Shown: positions 19,084-32,705 of the stretch, piece by piece
How positions within the stretch are numbered: the first letter of the stretch is position 1
Layout: every line of letters begins with the position of its first letter
NCBI GenBank assembly: GCA_023920165.1
Contig: CP089276.1
Span: forward strand, 2,294,001-2,358,000
Direction of reading: 5' to 3'
Length of the DNA: 64,000 nt
From: Curvularia clavata
Taxonomy: Eukaryota
Notes under the pieces: model-generated
Told to the model about the DNA's origin: nothing
Seen by the model: the letters and a program-made list of their open reading frames with translations, nothing else
Databases searched by the model: none
Translations under genes and position numbers: made by a program

Positions 19084-19589
19084 ATGCTGCCTCGAACGAT
19101 AGCGGCCGCCCCTCTGACTCACCCACGGGCCAGAGTCTCCCATCGAGGCCGACTGCTGCTCTCCTCCCTGTCGTCCTTCTCCCGCACCCCCTACCCCCTC
19201 TCCCTCGTCGCCCCGCTCACCACTGCGCACCCCGCCACCATGTCGCTCGCCAACGAGAAGCACGAATGGGGCGCCGTCCGCGTGCGCCAGACATTCCTCG
19301 ACTACTTCAAGGAGCGCGGCCACACGTTCGGTAGGTTCTGCCGCTCCAATGCCCCCGTCCACGCCCATTGACCTTGCCCGCCCCAGTCCCTTCGTCGTCG
19401 GTCGTGCCCCTCTCCGACCCCACCCTGCTCTTCACCAATGCTGGCATGAACCAGTACAAGGCCATTTTCCAAGGCACCATCGACCCCTCGTCCGACTTTG
19501 CCCAGCTCAAGCGCGCCGCAAACTCGCAAAAGTGCATTCGCGCCGGCGGCAAGCACAACGACCTCGACGATGTCGGCAAGGACAGCTAC

Positions 19590-19620
<31 letters not shown>

Positions 19621-22258
19621 GGAGCTTCGGCGACTATTTCAAGAAGGAGGCCATTGGCTTCACCTGGGAGCTGCTCACAAAAGTCTACGGCATCGACCCC
19701 AAGCGCCTCTATGTCACCTACTTTGAGGGCACTGCGGACCTCGAGCCCGATCTCGAGGCCAAGGACCTCTGGCTCAAGGCCGGTGTCCCCGAGGACCACA
19801 TCTTGCCAGGAGATATGAAGGACAACTTCTGGGAGATGGGCGACCAGGGCCCATGCGGACCTTGCTCAGAGGTGCACTATGACCTGAGAGAGCCTGAGAA
19901 CGGCCAGTACAGGAATGCGGCTTCGCTCGTCAACATGGACGACCCAGAGGTCATTGAGATCTGGAACAACGTCTTCATGCAGTACAACCGCGAACCCGAC
20001 CGATCGCTGCGGCCGCTGCCCAACAAGCACATTGATACCGGTATGGGATACGAGCGACTTGTCTCGGTGCTGCAACATAAAAAATCAAATTACGACACTG
20101 ATGTCTTTACCCCGCTGTTCCAAAGGATACAGGAGATTACTGGAGCGCGGGAATACAGGGGCAAGTTTGGTGATGAGGATCCGGATGGTATCGATACCGC
20201 CTACCGAGTCGTCGCTGACCACGTCCGAATGATGAGCTTCGCCATTGCCGACGGAGGTGTCCCGAACAATGTTGGCCGAGGCTACGTCGTACGTCGCGTG
20301 CTGCGAAGAGGCGCCCGTTATGCGCGCAAATACTTTGCCTGCGAGATTGGCGACTTCTTCTCAAAGATTGTCCCTACACTGGTCGATCAGATGGGCGACA
20401 TGTTCCCCGAAATCAGGAAGAAGCAGCAGGACATCATCGAGATCCTGGACGAGGAGGAGAAGGCTTTCGCCAAGTCGCTGGATCGTGGCGAAGTCATTTT
20501 TGAAAAGTATGCGCAAAAGGCAAAGACAAAGGGATCAGATGAGCTGCCAGGTGACGACGTTTGGCGGTTATACGATACCTACGGTTTCCCTGTCGATCTG
20601 ACTAAGCTCATGGCCGAGGAGCGGGGCTTGAAGATCAAGGACGAGGAAGTCGAGGCGGCGCAGGAAAAGGCTCGCGAAGCCAGCAAGGGCGACAAGAAGG
20701 CCGCTGGCCTCCTTGTCAAGCTTGACGTGCACGATCTCGGCGCGCTCGAAAACATGCCAGAGGTTCCCAAGACGGACGATTCCCCCAAGTACGGCCGCGA
20801 AAACATTACGGCTGTCATCAAGGCCATATATCACAACAAGAAGTTCCTCAAGAGCACGGCCGAGGTTCCAGCCGGCGAGCAATTCGGTGTCCTGCTCGAC
20901 CGTACAAACTTCTACGCCGAGCAGGGTGGTCAGGAGTACGATACCGGAAAGCTGTTGGTTGATGGAGAGGCTGAGATTAGCATCGAGAATGTACAGGTAT
21001 ACGCCGGTTATGTGCTACATACCGGTTACATCAAGTACGGAGAGCTGAGTGTAGGCAGCGAGGTCATTGCCGAGTTCGACGAGCTACGGAGACATCCTAT
21101 CCGCAACAACCACACCGGCACACACGTCCTCAACTACGCCCTTCGCGAGGTCCTCGGTAACGAAGTCGACCAAAAGGGATCGCTCGTTGCACCAGAGAAG
21201 CTACGTTTTGACTTTTCACACAAGGCTGGACTGTCAGATGCGGAGCTTGACAAGGTGGAGAGCATCTCGTCCAAGTACATCAAGGATGATGCCCAGGTAT
21301 ACGCCATGGACGTACCACTTGCGTCTGCCAAAGAAATCCGAGGTGTACGTGCCGTCTTCGGTGAGACCTACCCTGACCCAGTCCGTGTCGTCTCGGTCGG
21401 TGTGCCTGTAGAAGAGCTCCTCAAAGATGTCAAGAACGAAAAGTGGGAGAAGGTTTCAGTCGAGTTCTGCGGTGGTACCCACGTGCTCAAGACGGGCGAA
21501 ATCAAGGAACTTGTCATCCTCGAGGAATCCGGTATCGCCAAGGGCATCCGCCGTATCGTCGCAGTCACGGGCCAAGACGCATACGATGTCCAACGCATCG
21601 CCGCTGAGTTCCAACAGCGTGTGGAGAGCATGGGCAAGATGCCCTTTGGACCTCAAAAGGAAGCAGAGGCAAAGAAGATTGGCGTCGAGCTCAACAACCT
21701 CACCATCTCCGCCCTGGCAAAGAGCAAGCTCCGCGAGCAGTTCGCCAAGATCCAGAAGAGCATTCTGGACGAGCAAAAGGCTGCTGCTAAAGCAGACAAC
21801 AAGCGCGTTCTCGACGAGGTGACCAAGTTCTTTGAGGATAAGAACAACAAGTTTATGGTCAAGAAGCTCGACTGGTCGAGCAACGTCAACAAGGCTATCA
21901 GCGAGGCTATCAAGACTGTGTCTGGCCCGAAGAGCGCCTTGAAAGATCGCTCGCTCTATCTCTTTTCTGCGTCGCCCGAGGAGGGTAAGGTTGTGCATGG
22001 ATGTTATGTTAGTGAGGTAAGTCATTGTTCCCTCCTATACAAAAAAGAGTACAAGATGCTAACATGATTGAAAAACAGCCTTTCAAAAACGCAGGCGCAG
22101 ACGGCCCCAAGTGGGCATCCGCCGTCACACCTATTATCGGTGGTAAGGCCGGTGGCAAGCCTGGTGCCCAGACTGCGATTGGTCAAGGTACAAATGCGGA
22201 TAAGGTCGATGAGGGCGTCGAGGAGGCGAGGAAGTGGATTGAGGGATTCAAGATTTAG
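19084..22258 (+). CDS. ALA1: Alanyl-tRNA synthetase (cytosolic start 19240; putative mitochondrial start 19084)
   Basis: Introns 19331-19386 and 22017-22078. Motifs [50 protein letters not shown], editing NHTGTH and EFCGGTH, C-terminal GGKAGGK. Confidence 0.97.
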
Positions 22259-24993: not shown

Positions 24994-27124
24994 CTAGTAT
25001 TCTAGAGTGACCTTTTGACCCTTGACCCTTCCAATTACAATTTCAGGTGCATACTTGGGAATGACCTCGTCGTCGTGCAGCATCTCGAACTCCTCTGACG
25101 CGTCCTTGCCCATGTGGCTGAAGAGCGCCTGGGGACCACCTGGGTGCTCGTCTGTCCAGTTGGTGACGTCCATGACGATACCCTTGACGGCAATCCACAG
25201 GTCATCCTTCTTGTTGTGCTTGGCAACCTCCTCCAGAGTGAACTCCTTGTCGGGGATGGTGAACTTCTGAGGCGCGTTGGGCTTGGAAACCTTGCCAGGG
25301 TCACTTGAGTCGGCCTTGCTGGACATGACTGGGGCAGCAGACGCCTGCTTCTGTTGTGCAACGGGGTCTGCCGAGCTGACAGCAGGCTGGGAGCCGCTGG
25401 CGCCGTTACCCCACTCCACTGAGACCTTTCCGGGCTGCGATGGGTCAATGTGGAGCGAGATTTGGCCGAGACGAGATACTGCAGCACCGCCGGCCTTGTT
25501 GAGTGCCTGCTGGAACAGGTACTTGGACGCAGACTCTCCAGCCACGCGACCATAGACAACGCAACCGAGGAGCGAGGAGCCACCAAGACGGTTGGCACCG
25601 TGGACACCACCAGCAAGCTCACCACAGACGTACAAGCCCTCGAATGGCTCGCCGTTGGAGTTCAAGCACTGCGCCTGGTCGTTGATCTCGATACCACCCA
25701 TGGTGAAGTGGAGCACAGGCTCCATCTGGGCAACGTGGAAGGTGTCGTTGATGTCAAAGGGCATGTTGTGGAAGTACTTCTTGTTCCACTCATCCTTCTT
25801 CTCGCCCTTGGCAATGGCGTTGTAGCTCTGGAACTCGGCCTGGAGCTCCTTCTCGCTCACGCCAATCTCCTTGGCAAGCTCCTTGCCGGACATCTTCTTC
25901 ATCAGGCCACGGCCTGAGTAATGCCTGGTGTGGAAGTCGAGGACGTTGGATGCTTTTGAGTTGAGCACGAGGCGGATGGGCCAGTTGCCCTTGTCCTTCT
26001 CGCCCCACATCATGCCGGAAACGTAGTCACGGTGGCCAAGGTCGTCGCAGAAGCGCTTGCCCTTGTTGTTGAGGAGGATACCGCCCTCACCACGGAGAGC
26101 TAGACATGTCAGAAGATGATAATGAAGTTTAGTAGCTCATGTACGTACCTTCAGCAGCCAAAAACTTGGTCTTGGCCGTAGGGTCCTTGGGGTCAACGAG
26201 ACCAGTGGGGTGAACCTGGACCTTGTCCATGTCGATGCCGTTGGCACCAATCTTCATGAGCATCTTGTGTCCGTCACCGGTGGCGTGAGCGCCGTTGGTG
26301 GTGGACAGGTCGTAGGTGTCTGGCCTCCACTTCTTCAGAAGAGAGTCTTCTGTGAAGTCGGCGGCGTAACCACCAGTGGCCAGGACGACGGGGCCCTCAA
26401 TCGTTGTCTCCTCGCCGTTGAAGGTGTATGTGACACCGGTGGCGCGGTTGCCCTCGGTGTTGACCTTGGTGACCTTGGCCTTCTTGACGAGCTGGACGCG
26501 CTCGGGCTCCGCCTCGGCGAGCTCCTCGAATCGCTGCATGAGAGCGTATGTAATGGCCATACCGGGGAACTTGGCATCGTGGCCACGGTGGGTTCGAGGC
26601 TGCGAGTGACCGCTGCGAGGTCTGTCAGTATGCGCTGCCATGGTCGGCTATGACAGGAAAACTCACCCCAAGCGCGAAACGAGAGTCAGGTCGAGGTTGA
26701 AGACGTCCATCAGCCACTCGACGGCGGCAGCCGACTTGTAAGTAAGGACCTTGATCAGGTCTGGGCGCGCCTTGTCGCGCGCCGACTTGAGTGTGTCATC
26801 GTAGAACTGCTTGACGCTGTCGGGAATGCCGGCATCCACCTGTGTCCTGGTGAGAGCACCGTTGATTCCGGATGTGGCCTTGGTGGAGTTGCCTCCCATG
26901 AAGTCTGCGGCGAATCAGTCTATGCGCGCGTGGGGTATCCAAGGCAAAAGACTCACTGTTCTTGTCGAGGAGGACAACATTGCCTCCAGCAAGGTAGATG
27001 GTGTGAGCAGCGCTCAAGCCGGACACTATAGGCGTTGTCAGTCATGCGCATGATGGGGGGCGTGATGCAGCGGCGAAGATGATTACTTACAGCCAGCACC
27101 GACAACAATGACTCTCTCAGGCAT
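24994..27124 (-). CDS. Soluble FAD-dependent fumarate reductase (Osm1/Frd1-like) with C-terminal cytochrome b5 domain
   Basis: Introns 27090-27026, 26956-26905, 26666-26613 and 26148-26100. Motifs MPERVIVVGAGLSGLSAA, GGNSTKATSGING, VQVHPTG, HFTMGG, GVHGANRLGGSSLL and b5 motif EHPGG. Confidence 0.93.
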
Positions 27125-28400: not shown

Positions 28401-29350
28401 TCAATGGCACGCGACCGACTTGGTGGATGAAGACTGGCTGAACATGAGGTATCCGACGAACGCACCAACTGCCACTGCCAGCATGATCCAGCCATTGTAT
28501 GTCATGAAAAGCAGCCTGTAACTAATCAGTGCAAACCTCCTCGTCTCAGCCAGCAAACTTACATGATGAAAAAGGAGTAAAAGACCTGGACAGCATACAG
28601 GACGGCCTTGATAATCTTCATCTGCTGTTCGGTGCTACGCCCAAGACTTCCATTTCTCCCTGGGCCAAGTAATGAGCTCGATTCGTTTGTTTGACCGTCG
28701 TCTTTTGGTGGCGCGTAGATGCCTCAGCGAGTGTTTCTCAACTCAAGGGAGGGAAAGAGACGGAGAATAGGGGAAAAAAGGTAGGCAGGTAGAAGGAGAA
28801 CATGGAATATAGGTAGGCAGGAACCGAAGAAGAGTGATGTCCCCTATTCTTCCAACTCCCTACCTACAGTCACAAAATTCATATCCCTTCCAAATCACCA
28901 TTTCAAGTTTGATTATTCAAAGAAAAGACGTCAAACTCACCTCTCGGGCTCTCCAAAACCCCCTTCGCATACCCCTCGTACCGCCTCGATATCTCCCTAA
29001 CCGCCTCATACCCAGCTGTGAGCAGCACAACCGCCAGCAGCGAGAAAATAAGCGACCCCGTGCCTGAGATATGCCAAGAGGGGAAAACAATGCAGAGGTC
29101 CGTTGTGTCCCAGGTAAACAGCATCTATTCAATCTTTGAATTAACCAGGGGTTCAATATGTTTGCAGGCTGGCAAGAGGTAGCCAAGCAGCATGTAGATT
29201 CATGCCAGTTTGGATGGGTGAATTTGGGGTCCATACATTCATGTTACATTTTGGACCGCTGCCGCCCATGCCAGGCATGTCGTGGTCCATGTGTCCGTGG
29301 TCCATATGACCGTGGTCCATATGACCGTGATCCATGTGCGAGTGGTCCAT
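28401..29350 (-). CDS. CTR2: Ctr2-type (vacuolar/low-affinity) copper transporter
   Basis: Introns 29236-29125, 28940-28702 and 28562-28516. His/Met-rich N-terminus, CNMNMLFTWDTTDLCIVF, MLLFMTYNG (MxxxM), GAFVG (GxxxG) and C-terminal ACH. Confidence 0.92.
29282..29350 (-). repeat. 15-bp coding repeat encoding (MDHGH)-type metal-binding pentapeptides
   Basis: Encodes MDHSH-MDHGH-MDHGH-MDHGH-MDH at the CTR2 N-terminus. Confidence 0.9.
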
Positions 29351-29746
29351 AGCGAGCGGTGTCTATGAGCTTATCCGTAAAAAGAGCTGTCTAGGGTGTC
29401 TTCGTTCTACGAGAGAGAAAGAGGGAGGGAGAGTTACGTTCGCAGGAAAGACGCCGAAGCTAGGTTGTGCTGACTTGTCACGAGACGTGTCGTGTAGGGT
29501 CCTAGGTATGGCGTTCGCGTCGCACCAGTGATGAGATGCACGAGCCCGCGATAATGCGGGGCGCAGCGCGGCGATAAGCACCCCACCCATGCCGCGAACT
29601 CTCTATTACACTAAGACCTTGGGCTTCTTCGACTTGCTCTTGGATCCCACGAAGTGCTTACGGGAGGTCCACGGCATCGCCGGATTCCAAGAGAAAAGAG
29701 AAAAAAAGGTTTTGCACTTGCTGAGTACAAAAGCGCAGTGGTCACG

Positions 29747-30468
29747 ATGGTTGCGCTGCGAGCTTCACGACCTGCCTCTGGGCTCATCCAGAGCGCGTTG
29801 CGACGACCCGCGTCAAGCATACTCTGTACCCGTTCACAGCGCTACTTTTCACATTCAAGACCAAGGATGTTGCTAGGTCCACCACTCAACATTCCGAAAT
29901 GGTCCGTATACCTGTCCACAACATCCCAATTCCTACAACACTTACTAAGCAATCATCTTACAGGGTCGCCGAGAATTCGCACATGCTCAAACCGCCCATT
30001 AACAATTACTGCGTCTACAACGACTCGGTAACGGTAATGATTGTCGGCGGGCCGAACGAACGCACAGATTACCACATCAACGAGACTGCAGAATGGTTCT
30101 ACCAACACAAAGGCTCCATGCTGCTCAAAGTCGTTGATCAATCCCTCCCAGAAGGCCAGCAGTTCAAAGACATTCACATCCACGAGGGCGACATGTTCCT
30201 GCTACCACCGAATACACCGCACAATCCTGTAAGGTTCAAGGACACGGTGGGGATTGTTCTGGAGCAGAAGAGGCCCGATGGGAGTCTGGATCGGTTGCGC
30301 TGGTATTGCCAAAATTGCGGAGAAAAGGTGCACGAGGCAGCGTTTCATTGCACGGATCTGGGGACGCAAATCAAAGACGCAGTCAATGCGTTCAAGGCGG
30401 ACATGGACAAGAGGAAGTGTAAGAACTGTGGGACCATTTGTGACACTGCGCCACCGCCCAAGGCTTGA
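29747..30468 (+). CDS. BNA1: 3-hydroxyanthranilate 3,4-dioxygenase (canonical start 29867; upstream in-frame start 29747)
   Basis: Intron 29902-29963. [63 protein letters not shown] and rubredoxin-like CQNC/CKNC. Confidence 0.95.
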
Positions 30469-30547
30469 AAAGCGAGATGCGGAAACGGCAGACAGTGCAT
30501 GTAAATTATGTATCATAAGTATGAAGAGGCATATTTAGCAATGGAGG

Positions 30548-32705
30548 CTATAGCCCCTTCCACATAATCTTCGAGATGTGGTCCGTCTTCTTCCGGCTCG
30601 GCTTGACCAGGCCCAAGTATCTGAGTTCGGCCAGTGCTCGTTGAAAGAGCGCCCTGGAAATGGATTAGCATTTCTGCGAAAAAGAAAAAAAAAGAAAAAA
30701 CGCGGGAATCAAAACTCACATGGTCTTGGGTTCATTCTCTTCAACCCCATCACCCGCAATCGCATTAAAGGCTGACCACAGATCGCTCACGTTGATCAAG
30801 GTACCTGATTCAAGGTACATCTGATACACAATAGCAGTCGCGGGCTGCGTCGCCGAAAGAGCAGTTGGATTGCCATCTACGCCGCTGCAGCACTCGCAAC
30901 CCAAGTAGTCATGAGGAGAAGCCAGCGCACGCTCTACAGCGAAGCGAGGCTTGGGTTGGAAGACTTCGGTATGGGGTGACTTGAGGTCGTACATCAGGAT
31001 CTCGGAAAGAAACAGCCCTTTGGGGTCGATGAATGCAGCAGTGAAGTATGCTTCGAGCTCGTCGTGGAACTGCGTGACTAGGTCAGAGTAGGCCTTGTCC
31101 TGTTCAGACAACGCTGCCTTGTGCTTGCTCAGGAGCACCTTTTGTGCAACGACAGTTGTGCGGAGACTGTCGCTGCGAACATCGTGCTGAGTGCGGAGAG
31201 GAGCATCGGTGTTTTGTACCAAGCTCTGCAGCTTCTGCTCAGAAGAAGCAATGTCTACCGAGAAGTACTGGCCCACAAGATCCTTTAGTGATGCAAGCAA
31301 ATTCACTAGCTTGTCTGATGGAATCTTCTTGATGGACAACATCGTCTCGCGAACAAGAGGTGATCCGGCCAGCTCACCAGCTGCTGCGCGGGTCCAGAGA
31401 GACGAAAGCCGCACGTTGGGCGACATTTGCAATGATTCTCGTATGTTCGCAATGACCTTGGTAGCGTGGCTCATTGTAGTCATGACTTGTTGGCCAGATC
31501 GTATGTGCTGAGTGATTTCACTGAAGAGGTGATCGTTGTCTTCAAGCATCCTACGCACCTCCTGTGTGTTGCCTTTGTCCAGCATATCTTCTACGCGATG
31601 GCGGAAAGACGGTAGATTCCGTACAGCCTCGAATGCATCTTCTGTCAGGCTGCCAAAAGCGATATCACAGCCGAGGAATATACTAGGCACATTGGCGTAG
31701 AAGTGCGACATGTAGGCATACTTGAGACCATCACAGAAGTCTTGCGTATTCTGTACGTGATCTTTTTGTCGATCAAGCATGCGACGGCAGATGTTGGGTC
31801 CAATGTGCAGACCAACGTCTCTGCTAGCAACCGTTGCATGGAAAAGCTTCTCGATGATCTCGTCCGACTGGGTAACATCAAACTTTTTTCCCTCGAGATA
31901 ACGTAACGAGTTGCCTGATAAGCGCTCCTCGAAGCTCTCTGCTGATGTCGCAATTCCAAAGAGCAGAACAAAGGGAAGGCGATCTAGCCACGAGCTGAAA
32001 TGATTAGCACGAGTCGTGAAGGCACATTTTCTACTCACTGAAGGAGGTCAATTGTGTCAACGAGTAATCCAACATCGAAAGCTTCGCTATCCTGCAAAGC
32101 AACTACAATCCTAGAGGCTCGTGTCTTCTTATGCCATTCGTGGACATGGCCGAGGTCATAATTCAGAAGCTTTGGACCATATCTGGAAGCAGACGGCCGA
32201 TTCGCATCCTCTTCATCATCATCTTCAACGCGCAACGTCACTTTCTTAATGAGATTCTTCAGCAGCGTCTTCAGATTGGGGCATTCACTCGAGGTCAGGA
32301 CAACGTAGGCGCTGTTTTCATCCCTGACCCGTCTGCCAAGACGCTCAAAGAAGGGCCCGTGAGATGCAATACTTGGCCCTGCAACAATGAGCGCTGTCGG
32401 TATAGCAAACTTGGGCTCATCTGGAGATGAACTTGCGGTGGTGATGAATTGAACAATCTTCTCTTGGGTTGCGCTGTCAGCACCCTCGAGTGTGCTCTAG
32501 TGTTGCTGTTAGATGAATTGGCGAGAAGTAGTGGGGGCTTTGGTCTTACTTGGATGCGCTCCTCCTGTTGTGCCCACAGGCTTCGGTACGTTGTTAGTCG
32601 CTCTGGCAACTGCGCCTTAGGGTCGAATTTGCTTGTCCGTTGCCGCTTCGGCGCCCGGTCCATCGTCGGCGGAGGCTCGTAGACATAGCATCTTTGGTGC
32701 TCCAT
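30548..32705 (-). CDS. ORC3: Origin recognition complex subunit 3
   Basis: Introns 32549-32497, 32038-31995 and 30719-30654. Motifs LQDSEAFD, LPFVLLFGIATS, KYAYMSHFYAN, PRFAVERALASPHDYLGCECC and winged-helix end FQRALAELRYLGLVKPSRKKTDH. Confidence 0.92.

Follow-up and report, generated by a model that had tools for sequence, protein, structure and literature searches.

A 64,000-nucleotide stretch of the Curvularia clavata genome (GenBank assembly GCA_023920165.1, contig CP089276.1, positions 2,294,001 to 2,358,000 of the forward strand; hereafter the window, with positions counted from its first letter) carries on its + strand a two-exon gene for 3-hydroxyanthranilate 3,4-dioxygenase (3-HAO, yeast BNA1). 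The reading frame of this gene is open for 40 codons upstream of an inner ATG at 29867, up to a first ATG at 29747. Our analysis suggests, with a probability of about 0.7, that ATG 29747 is the normal start of the protein and that the 40-residue extension is a cleavable mitochondrial presequence inherited throughout the class Dothideomycetes; we infer import into the organelle from sequence. In de novo NAD+ synthesis from tryptophan, 3-HAO supplies the precursor of quinolinate, the committed intermediate; the enzyme is treated as cytosolic in yeast and animals.

A transcribed upstream ATG in the 3-HAO gene

The assignment to BNA1, already made in the initial annotation, is borne out by exon 2, which alone matches PF06052 over profile positions 13-150 of 151 (E 3.1e-57, 192.9 bits with a cut-off of 25) and shares 80-92% identity with 3-HAO of Pleosporales. 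Seven residues (H85, E91, H134, C163, C166, C200, C203) are invariant in a 50-sequence alignment, and the same short motifs are found in exon 2 of the window. We take the His/Glu/His residues to form the iron site and the four C-terminal cysteines to form the Cys4 site. The protein comprises 219 amino acids (aa) when read from ATG 29747 and 179 aa when read from ATG 29867 (Table 1).

The upstream ATG lies in the context gtcacgATGgt, and the inner ATG, which likewise has A at -3, follows in frame after 120 nt, with neither a stop codon nor a further ATG in the interval. The shared frame, the spacing and the strong context of the first ATG had been described in the initial annotation, and the 40-aa peptide quoted there, with eight Arg and no Asp or Glu, agrees letter for letter with our translation. 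The nearest upstream in-frame stop is TAA at 29612-29614, with no in-frame ATG from there to 29747, and a scan of the sequence from 29590 to 29866 found 29747 to be the sole ATG preceding the inner one.

Table 1. Coordinates of the 3-HAO gene and of its proposed N-terminal signal within the window
Feature	Position	Strand	Basis
Minimum 5' untranslated region of the 3-HAO mRNA	29606..29746	+	Spliced RNA contigs; lower bound on length
First in-frame ATG, proposed main start	29747..29749	+	A at -3, G at +4; alignment to the initiator Met of relatives with the extension
40-codon N-terminal extension, proposed mitochondrial presequence	29747..29866	+	Composition, conservation, dN/dS, AlphaFold of a homologue
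Residues 3-20, segment of top helical hydrophobic moment (best 18-mer)	29753..29806	+	
R32-x-F34-S35-x-S37-...-M41, proposed MPP site after residue 33 with Icp55/Oct1 trimming	29840..29869	+	Motif
Inner in-frame ATG (Met41), putative lineage-specific residue	29867..29869	+	Comparison with relatives
Exon 1	29747..29901	+	Splice joint in contigs of 4/4 runs; Trp codon split TG/G
Intron, 62 nt, GT..AG	29902..29963	+	Removed in contigs X1, X3, X8, X15
Exon 2 including stop codon: cupin catalytic domain and C-terminal Cys4 site	29964..30468	+	Translation, PF06052

Assembled contigs from four sequencing runs belonging to four studies (X1, X3, X8, X15) cover the gene. That these represent RNA was at first a guess and was then shown by splicing: because the 3-HAO intron and the introns of both opposite-strand neighbours (CT..AC joints 29125-29236 and 30653-30718) are absent from them, the contigs derive from spliced RNA. 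The spliced 3-HAO contigs extend upstream to 29606 (X1), 29620 (X3), 29636 (X15) and 29664 (X8), that is, 83-141 nt 5' of ATG 29747 in all four runs, and the first AUG on the contig-covered mRNA is that at 29747. This reach contradicts a scenario raised together with the initial annotation, in which every transcript would begin 3' of 29747. Contigs of this kind reveal neither 5' ends nor proportions of transcripts, and their upstream reach is a lower bound. Within 29606-29900, the X1 and X3 contigs show 2 differences from the window and align without gaps; one of the X8 contigs agrees fully with the window over 29664-29900.

Between the contig of the upstream neighbour and those of 3-HAO, positions 29552-29605 have no cover among the contig rows listed, and two out-of-frame ATGs (29554 and 29589) fall into this stretch. 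The second of these opens a 95-codon frame (29589-29876, +) that overlaps the leader.

Conservation of the extension among annotated proteins

The best 120 homologues were sorted by the number of residues preceding the conserved PLNIPKW block that ends exon 1. At least 25 residues (median 43) precede the block in 46 of them, 9-24 residues in five, and 1-6 residues in 28, with Met-Leu-x-x in 24 of these 28; in the models of the other 41, mostly exon-2-only or mis-spliced, the block is absent. The long forms share a distinctive composition. Their extensions measure 32-61 residues in 44/46 cases, contain no Asp or Glu in 37/46 and at most one in 44/46, and carry at least five Arg or Lys in 43/46, with Arg and Lys in a ratio of 301:29. 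In contrast to these acid-poor extensions, Asp and Glu make up 13% of the mature domain. Across the family the extensions are rich in Arg, Ser, Thr, Ala and Leu, and they align across orders in three blocks, namely an M-x-x-L-R-P-A start, an R-T-x-x-A middle and a terminal R-x-F-S-x-T. The motif R-x-[FLIYVM]-x-x-[STG], with its Arg 13-15 residues before the PLNIPKW block, is found in 30/46 long forms. In 27 of these 30, Phe stands two residues after the Arg (position -8), and all 30 have Ser, Thr or Ala immediately behind that position.

Carriers whose classification was looked up belong to both subclasses of the Dothideomycetes (Decorospora, Stemphylium, Glonium, Verruconis, Cercospora, Lineolata), and the short form is found in Xylona and Phylliscum, members of other classes. 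Taking the class of the remaining named species as we presume it to be, all presequence-like extensions lie within the Dothideomycetes. The named species that we take to be Leotiomycetes, Sordariomycetes, Lecanoromycetes and yeasts have the short form, save one Sclerotinia model with an acidic 23-residue lead-in.

Searches that used the extension alone returned little: a 52-aa query compared with longer proteins gave no match, and the Stemphylium extension matched only itself. In a library of representatives at 50% identity, nearly all alignments begin at query residue 39-45 and leave the extension unmatched.

Public gene models of this family are often wrong at the 5' end, with starts inside the intron, exon 1 skipped, the intron retained or the frame over-extended upstream; such faults were seen in P0005, P0006, P0037, P0015 and P0315 and in the 41/120 homologues mentioned above. 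Among distant 3-HAO representatives of the long, animal-like type (P0202, P0228, P0210, P0149, P0192, P0197), basic, acid-poor N-terminal extensions were also noted, and the cluster of P0202 includes records from the chrysophyte alga Chlorochromonas danica. Two others of this set open with a long hydrophobic segment resembling a membrane anchor. Leaders on 3-HAO may have arisen more than once.

Conservation in raw DNA and selection on the extension

Since gene models favour long open frames, conservation was also tested in raw DNA. Metagenomic loci (76) were fetched with exon 2; six with an incomplete match were dropped, and a recognisable exon 1 was present in 49 of the 70 loci examined, the other 21, in which the pattern did not recognise exon 1, being uninformative either way. 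In 20/49 loci, representing 16 distinct peptides, the frame stays open to an ATG 40-55 codons upstream and encodes no more than one Asp or Glu and at least six Arg or Lys. A further 25/49 loci (8 distinct N-termini) are of the short form: their Met lies 3-6 codons ahead of the block, and a presequence-like ATG that would qualify is lacking 30-62 codons upstream. The remaining four are special cases. On the conservation check proposed with the initial annotation, a long extension is present in 46/120 homologues and a presequence-like frame with its ATG in 20/49 raw-DNA loci, with losses in some lineages.

The ratio of nonsynonymous to synonymous substitution rates (dN/dS) of the extension was 0.34, 0.20 and 0.19 in three close pairs, and the differences counted by codon position (7, 2 and 9; 10, 0 and 13; 8, 2 and 13) show that second positions change least. 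For exon 2 of the same pairs, dN/dS ranged between 0.02 and 0.09. The low ratios and the spared second positions indicate that the extension is translated and under purifying selection, though less strictly so than the enzyme itself, a common pattern in leader peptides.

Proposed targeting character of the extension

Presequences for the mitochondrial matrix are N-terminal, rich in Arg, nearly free of acidic residues and amphipathic, and end in an Arg-x/Phe-Ser junction. The extension of the C. clavata protein lies at the extreme N-terminus, has a suitable length (40 residues; expected range 15-55), contains 8 Arg, 0 Lys, 0 Asp/Glu and 9 Ser+Thr, and has an Arg two residues before the proposed cut; the Arg-x/Phe-Ser junction stands at its end, at a fixed distance from the fold. 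We further considered an AlphaFold model of the Decorospora homologue (89% exon 2 identity; 50-sequence alignment). Residues 1-40 of this model show a predicted local distance difference test (pLDDT) score of 46-63 and no secondary structure, and the fold begins near residue 42, which places the extension outside the cupin domain.

Other targeting signals were rejected by pattern, hydrophobic-run and C-terminus checks. The pattern of a type 2 peroxisomal targeting signal (PTS2) occurs in 0/52 extensions; a hydrophobic core suited to a signal peptide is lacking, the longest hydrophobic run being 3-4 residues in 40/52 extensions; and the C-terminus is not SKL-like, which leaves no type 1 peroxisomal signal (PTS1).

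We propose that the leader arose at or close to the base of the Dothideomycetes and that most members have kept it. Its Arg-rich, acid-free N-terminus would be recognised by the TOM/TIM23 import route, and the mitochondrial processing peptidase (MPP) would cut after R32-Y33. Phe34 would then be removed either alone by Icp55, leaving Ser35, or together with seven more residues by Oct1, leaving Leu42, and the cupin enzyme would act in the matrix. Met41 could permit a slight cytosolic product by leaky scanning, and nothing requires such a product.

Candidate processing sites

Passages of PMC3128517 give the motif for cleavage by MPP and then Oct1 as RX↓(F/L/I)XX(T/S/G)XXXX↓, with arrows at the cuts. 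R32, F34 and S37 fit this motif, lying 10, 8 and 5 residues before the M41-L42 bond. The proposed MPP cut falls between R32-Y33 and F34, and an equivalent site is found at the same distance in 30/46 relatives. According to the same passages, Phe heads the MPP intermediate in 11/14 yeast Oct1 substrates, the Oct1 products of yeast mostly begin with stabilising residues, and both Phe and Leu are primary destabilising residues (PMC3128517). Measured by a destabilising intermediate that is turned into a stabilising product, the Phe intermediate fits and the Leu product fails. Were Icp55 to take off just the Phe, 30/30 motif-bearing relatives would be left with an N-terminal Ser, Thr or Ala.

The reading as an Oct1 (R-10) substrate that the initial annotation had put forward is therefore retained in part: the three residues and the second cut before L42 agree with the motif, but the same residues also fit MPP followed by Icp55, and the Oct1 product would begin with a destabilising Leu. 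We do not file the protein as an Oct1 substrate. Set beside presequences processed by MPP, Oct1 or Icp55, the 3-HAO extension matches the three motif positions and the Phe intermediate, and its Ser after the Phe suits Icp55. It differs from yeast Oct1 substrates in its predicted Leu start, and its processing is a prediction from sequence.

The inner ATG and competing explanations

In relatives, the position of the Met at 29867 is occupied by Arg, Lys, Gln or other residues. A Met at -7 to -3 of the PLNIPKW block is present in only 2/46 extended homologues, and one within six codons of the block in 4/20 extended raw-DNA loci. Models from Alternaria (219 and 216 aa), three Bipolaris, Pyrenophora seminiperda, Plenodomus and Stemphylium have the extension without an inner Met, and the upstream ATG is therefore the only possible start in these fungi. 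Because the inner Met is absent in most relatives, ATG 29747 would be the ordinary start for the clade; on this alignment, Met41 is best read as a lineage-specific replacement of a basic residue and not as the ancestral start. The designation of 29867 as the canonical start in the initial annotation has to be given up.

The initial annotation had further proposed alternative start use, and meaningful use of both ATGs, with 29747 giving a matrix isoform and 29867 the cytosolic enzyme by leaky scanning or from a second transcription start, can draw on several observations. Both ATGs share one frame without a further ATG in between, the second has its A at -3, the sporadic recurrence of an inner Met (2/46 homologues; 4/20 loci) could reflect repeated selection for a cytosolic share, and leader-less lineages show that a cytosolic enzyme is viable. 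The dual cytosolic and mitochondrial enzymes HTS1, VAS1 and LEU4 of yeast are made from two in-frame AUGs, and 3-HAO likewise has two in-frame ATGs bracketing a presequence-like stretch. Unlike these, however, its second ATG is not conserved in relatives and its first lies in a strong context. As most relatives, including the closest ones read (Stemphylium, Alternaria, Bipolaris, P. seminiperda, Plenodomus), are without the inner Met, two-start use is not a conserved design, and the proposal finds no support as a conserved mechanism. The strong first ATG (A at -3, G at +4) disfavours much leaky scanning, and all gene-covering contigs include the upstream ATG. We therefore consider a functional pair of starts unlikely, and a substantial product from the second AUG improbable to the same degree. 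Far less credible still is a chance frame, in which the upstream ATG is unused and the 179-aa protein starts at ATG 29867. The composition of the extension is not rare in the GC-rich window, and many public models lack exon 1 or have other starts, with 41/120 lacking the PLNIPKW block; yet most relatives have no Met near 29867 and nevertheless retain the motif as well as an upstream ATG in the same frame, dN/dS of the extension is 0.19-0.34, second codon positions change least, and the mRNA carries the upstream ATG in a strong context. On these comparisons, conservation already contradicts a chance frame.

A different objection accepts that the extension is translated and conserved and concerns its function, which could be that of a disordered regulatory tail, for example with basophilic kinase sites (R-x-x-S is also a kinase-type motif), or of a signal for another destination. 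The AlphaFold model without a helix, the unremarkable amphipathicity of the single sequence and the cytosolic location of all described 3-HAOs agree with such a role. We regard it as rather improbable in view of the strict N-terminal position, at most one acidic residue in 44/46 extensions, an Arg:Lys ratio of 10:1, a length of 32-61 residues in 44/46, the F-S that directly follows R-x, the lack of PTS2, hydrophobic core and PTS1, and the location of the most amphipathic segment at the extreme N-terminus across the family.

A cleavable presequence starting at ATG 29747 remains our preferred reading, and the following points weigh against it. The strict R-x-[FLIYVM]-x-x-[STG] motif is absent in 16/46 long forms, and Oct1 cleavage would expose Leu here and in 12/30 motif-bearing relatives. 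For one sequence, the word "textbook" used in the initial annotation is an overstatement: no Asp or Glu together with at least eight Arg or Lys is found in 1282/45619 (2.8%) stop-free 40-codon stretches of the GC-rich window, and the helical hydrophobic moment of the extension is reached by 210/2000 shuffles for 18-mers and by 930/2000 for 11-mers. The single sequence thus makes a modest case for more than chance; it is by its conservation in relatives and its transcription that the extension exceeds the chance level. In the family as a whole, the median start of the most amphipathic 14-mer is residue 3 and 41-43/47 extensions lie above their own shuffle median, a count taken over related, non-independent sequences, and AlphaFold shows no helix in the extension.

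Some relatives have no leader. Models of P. teres and P. tritici-repentis (183 aa; P0284, P0286, P0313, P0003) and the metagenomic locus L006 start nine residues before the block, and the frame upstream of this start is acidic, unlike a presequence. In two further loci, L011 and L012, remnants of the middle and R-x-F blocks can still be recognised in frame, but an upstream ATG is missing and a new Met stands ten residues ahead of the PLNIPKW block. The leader has apparently been lost secondarily in P. teres, P. tritici-repentis and one metagenomic relative. Since some lineages are without it, the leader can be dispensed with; this agrees with an enzyme able to function in the cytosol as well, and counts against an essential matrix role. 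Further, shorter transcripts starting between both ATGs may exist alongside those recovered; no such class was seen in the contigs, though the contigs could not show one. We know of no matrix partner enzyme. As the initial annotation had stated, 3-HAO is regarded as cytosolic: passages of PMC9624242 describe yeast Bna1 as a cytosolic iron enzyme, and a passage of PMC7072712 says that yeast mitochondria do not produce their own NAD+.

Two other genes of the window belong to families that are dual-targeted in yeast via alternative starts, one for an alanyl-tRNA synthetase (19335-22067, +) and one for a fumarate-reductase-like flavoprotein with a cytochrome b5 domain (24994-26136, -).

Neighbouring genes

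The divergent neighbour upstream of 3-HAO (28903-29350, - strand, intron 29125-29236) encodes a Ctr-family copper transporter (PF04145, E 3e-14) whose N-terminus consists of Met/His-rich repeats. In this gene, 15 nt at 29295 are missing from the RNA contigs of 3/4 runs; they correspond to one five-residue repeat unit, which points to a copy-number polymorphism of the metal-binding repeat of the transporter. The transporter contig reaches 29551, leaving an uncovered gap to the 3-HAO transcript of at most about 55 nt by the contigs.

Downstream, a convergent gene on the - strand (30716-32047, intron 30653-30718) encodes an ORC3 homologue (PF07034, PF18137). Single RNA contigs of X1 and X3 continue from the 3-HAO message into this gene (region 30500-30800), which suggests that the 3' ends of the two transcripts overlap.

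Relation to known 3-HAO enzymes

The C. clavata protein belongs to the same PF06052 family as yeast Bna1 and animal HAAO, matching the profile nearly end to end and sharing the His/Glu/His residues and the four Cys. It differs from 3-HAO of non-Dothideomycete fungi, which starts four or five residues before the PLNLPKW block (28/120 homologues; 25/49 loci), by its 40 additional N-terminal residues. The extended 3-HAO pairs an enzyme with a proposed signal, each of an established kind. The kynurenine pathway already touches mitochondria elsewhere, with Bna4/KMO on the outer membrane and Bna3 partly mitochondrial, both of which are enzymes other than 3-HAO.

The full-text literature searched, which leaves most subscription journals outside its coverage and cannot prove absence, yielded no account of 3-HAO residing in mitochondria or bearing a targeting signal, and the passages retrieved from PMC4217691, PMC7842363, PMC4289922 and PMC11650718 are silent on its targeting. 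The extended protein is public already in the form of automatic gene models, and its meaning and class-wide distribution appear to be undescribed.

Biological meaning

A mitochondrial branch of NAD+ synthesis, as envisaged in the initial annotation, is at present a speculation. In evolutionary terms, we tentatively consider, at somewhat below even odds, that the Dothideomycetes moved the 3-HAO step into the matrix at the root of the class and that some lineages have since reverted, as the loss in P. teres and P. tritici-repentis and the relic in L011 and L012 would suggest; Met41 would then mark an early stage on the way to a cytosolic or dual form. If this is true, 3-hydroxyanthranilate would be carried into the organelle and quinolinate or its precursor out of it via carriers, or a catabolic branch leading via the decarboxylase towards glutaryl-CoA would be run inside. 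A matrix 3-HAO would raise questions about metabolite carriers, about the iron supply, and about the balance between NAD+ synthesis and tryptophan breakdown.

The faulty 5' ends of public gene models mean that proteome-wide localisation predictions for these fungi miss the leader, and the natural losses of the leader offer ready-made comparisons. If the leader works, the 3-HAO step would take place in a different compartment across the Dothideomycetes, a very large class with many crop pathogens.

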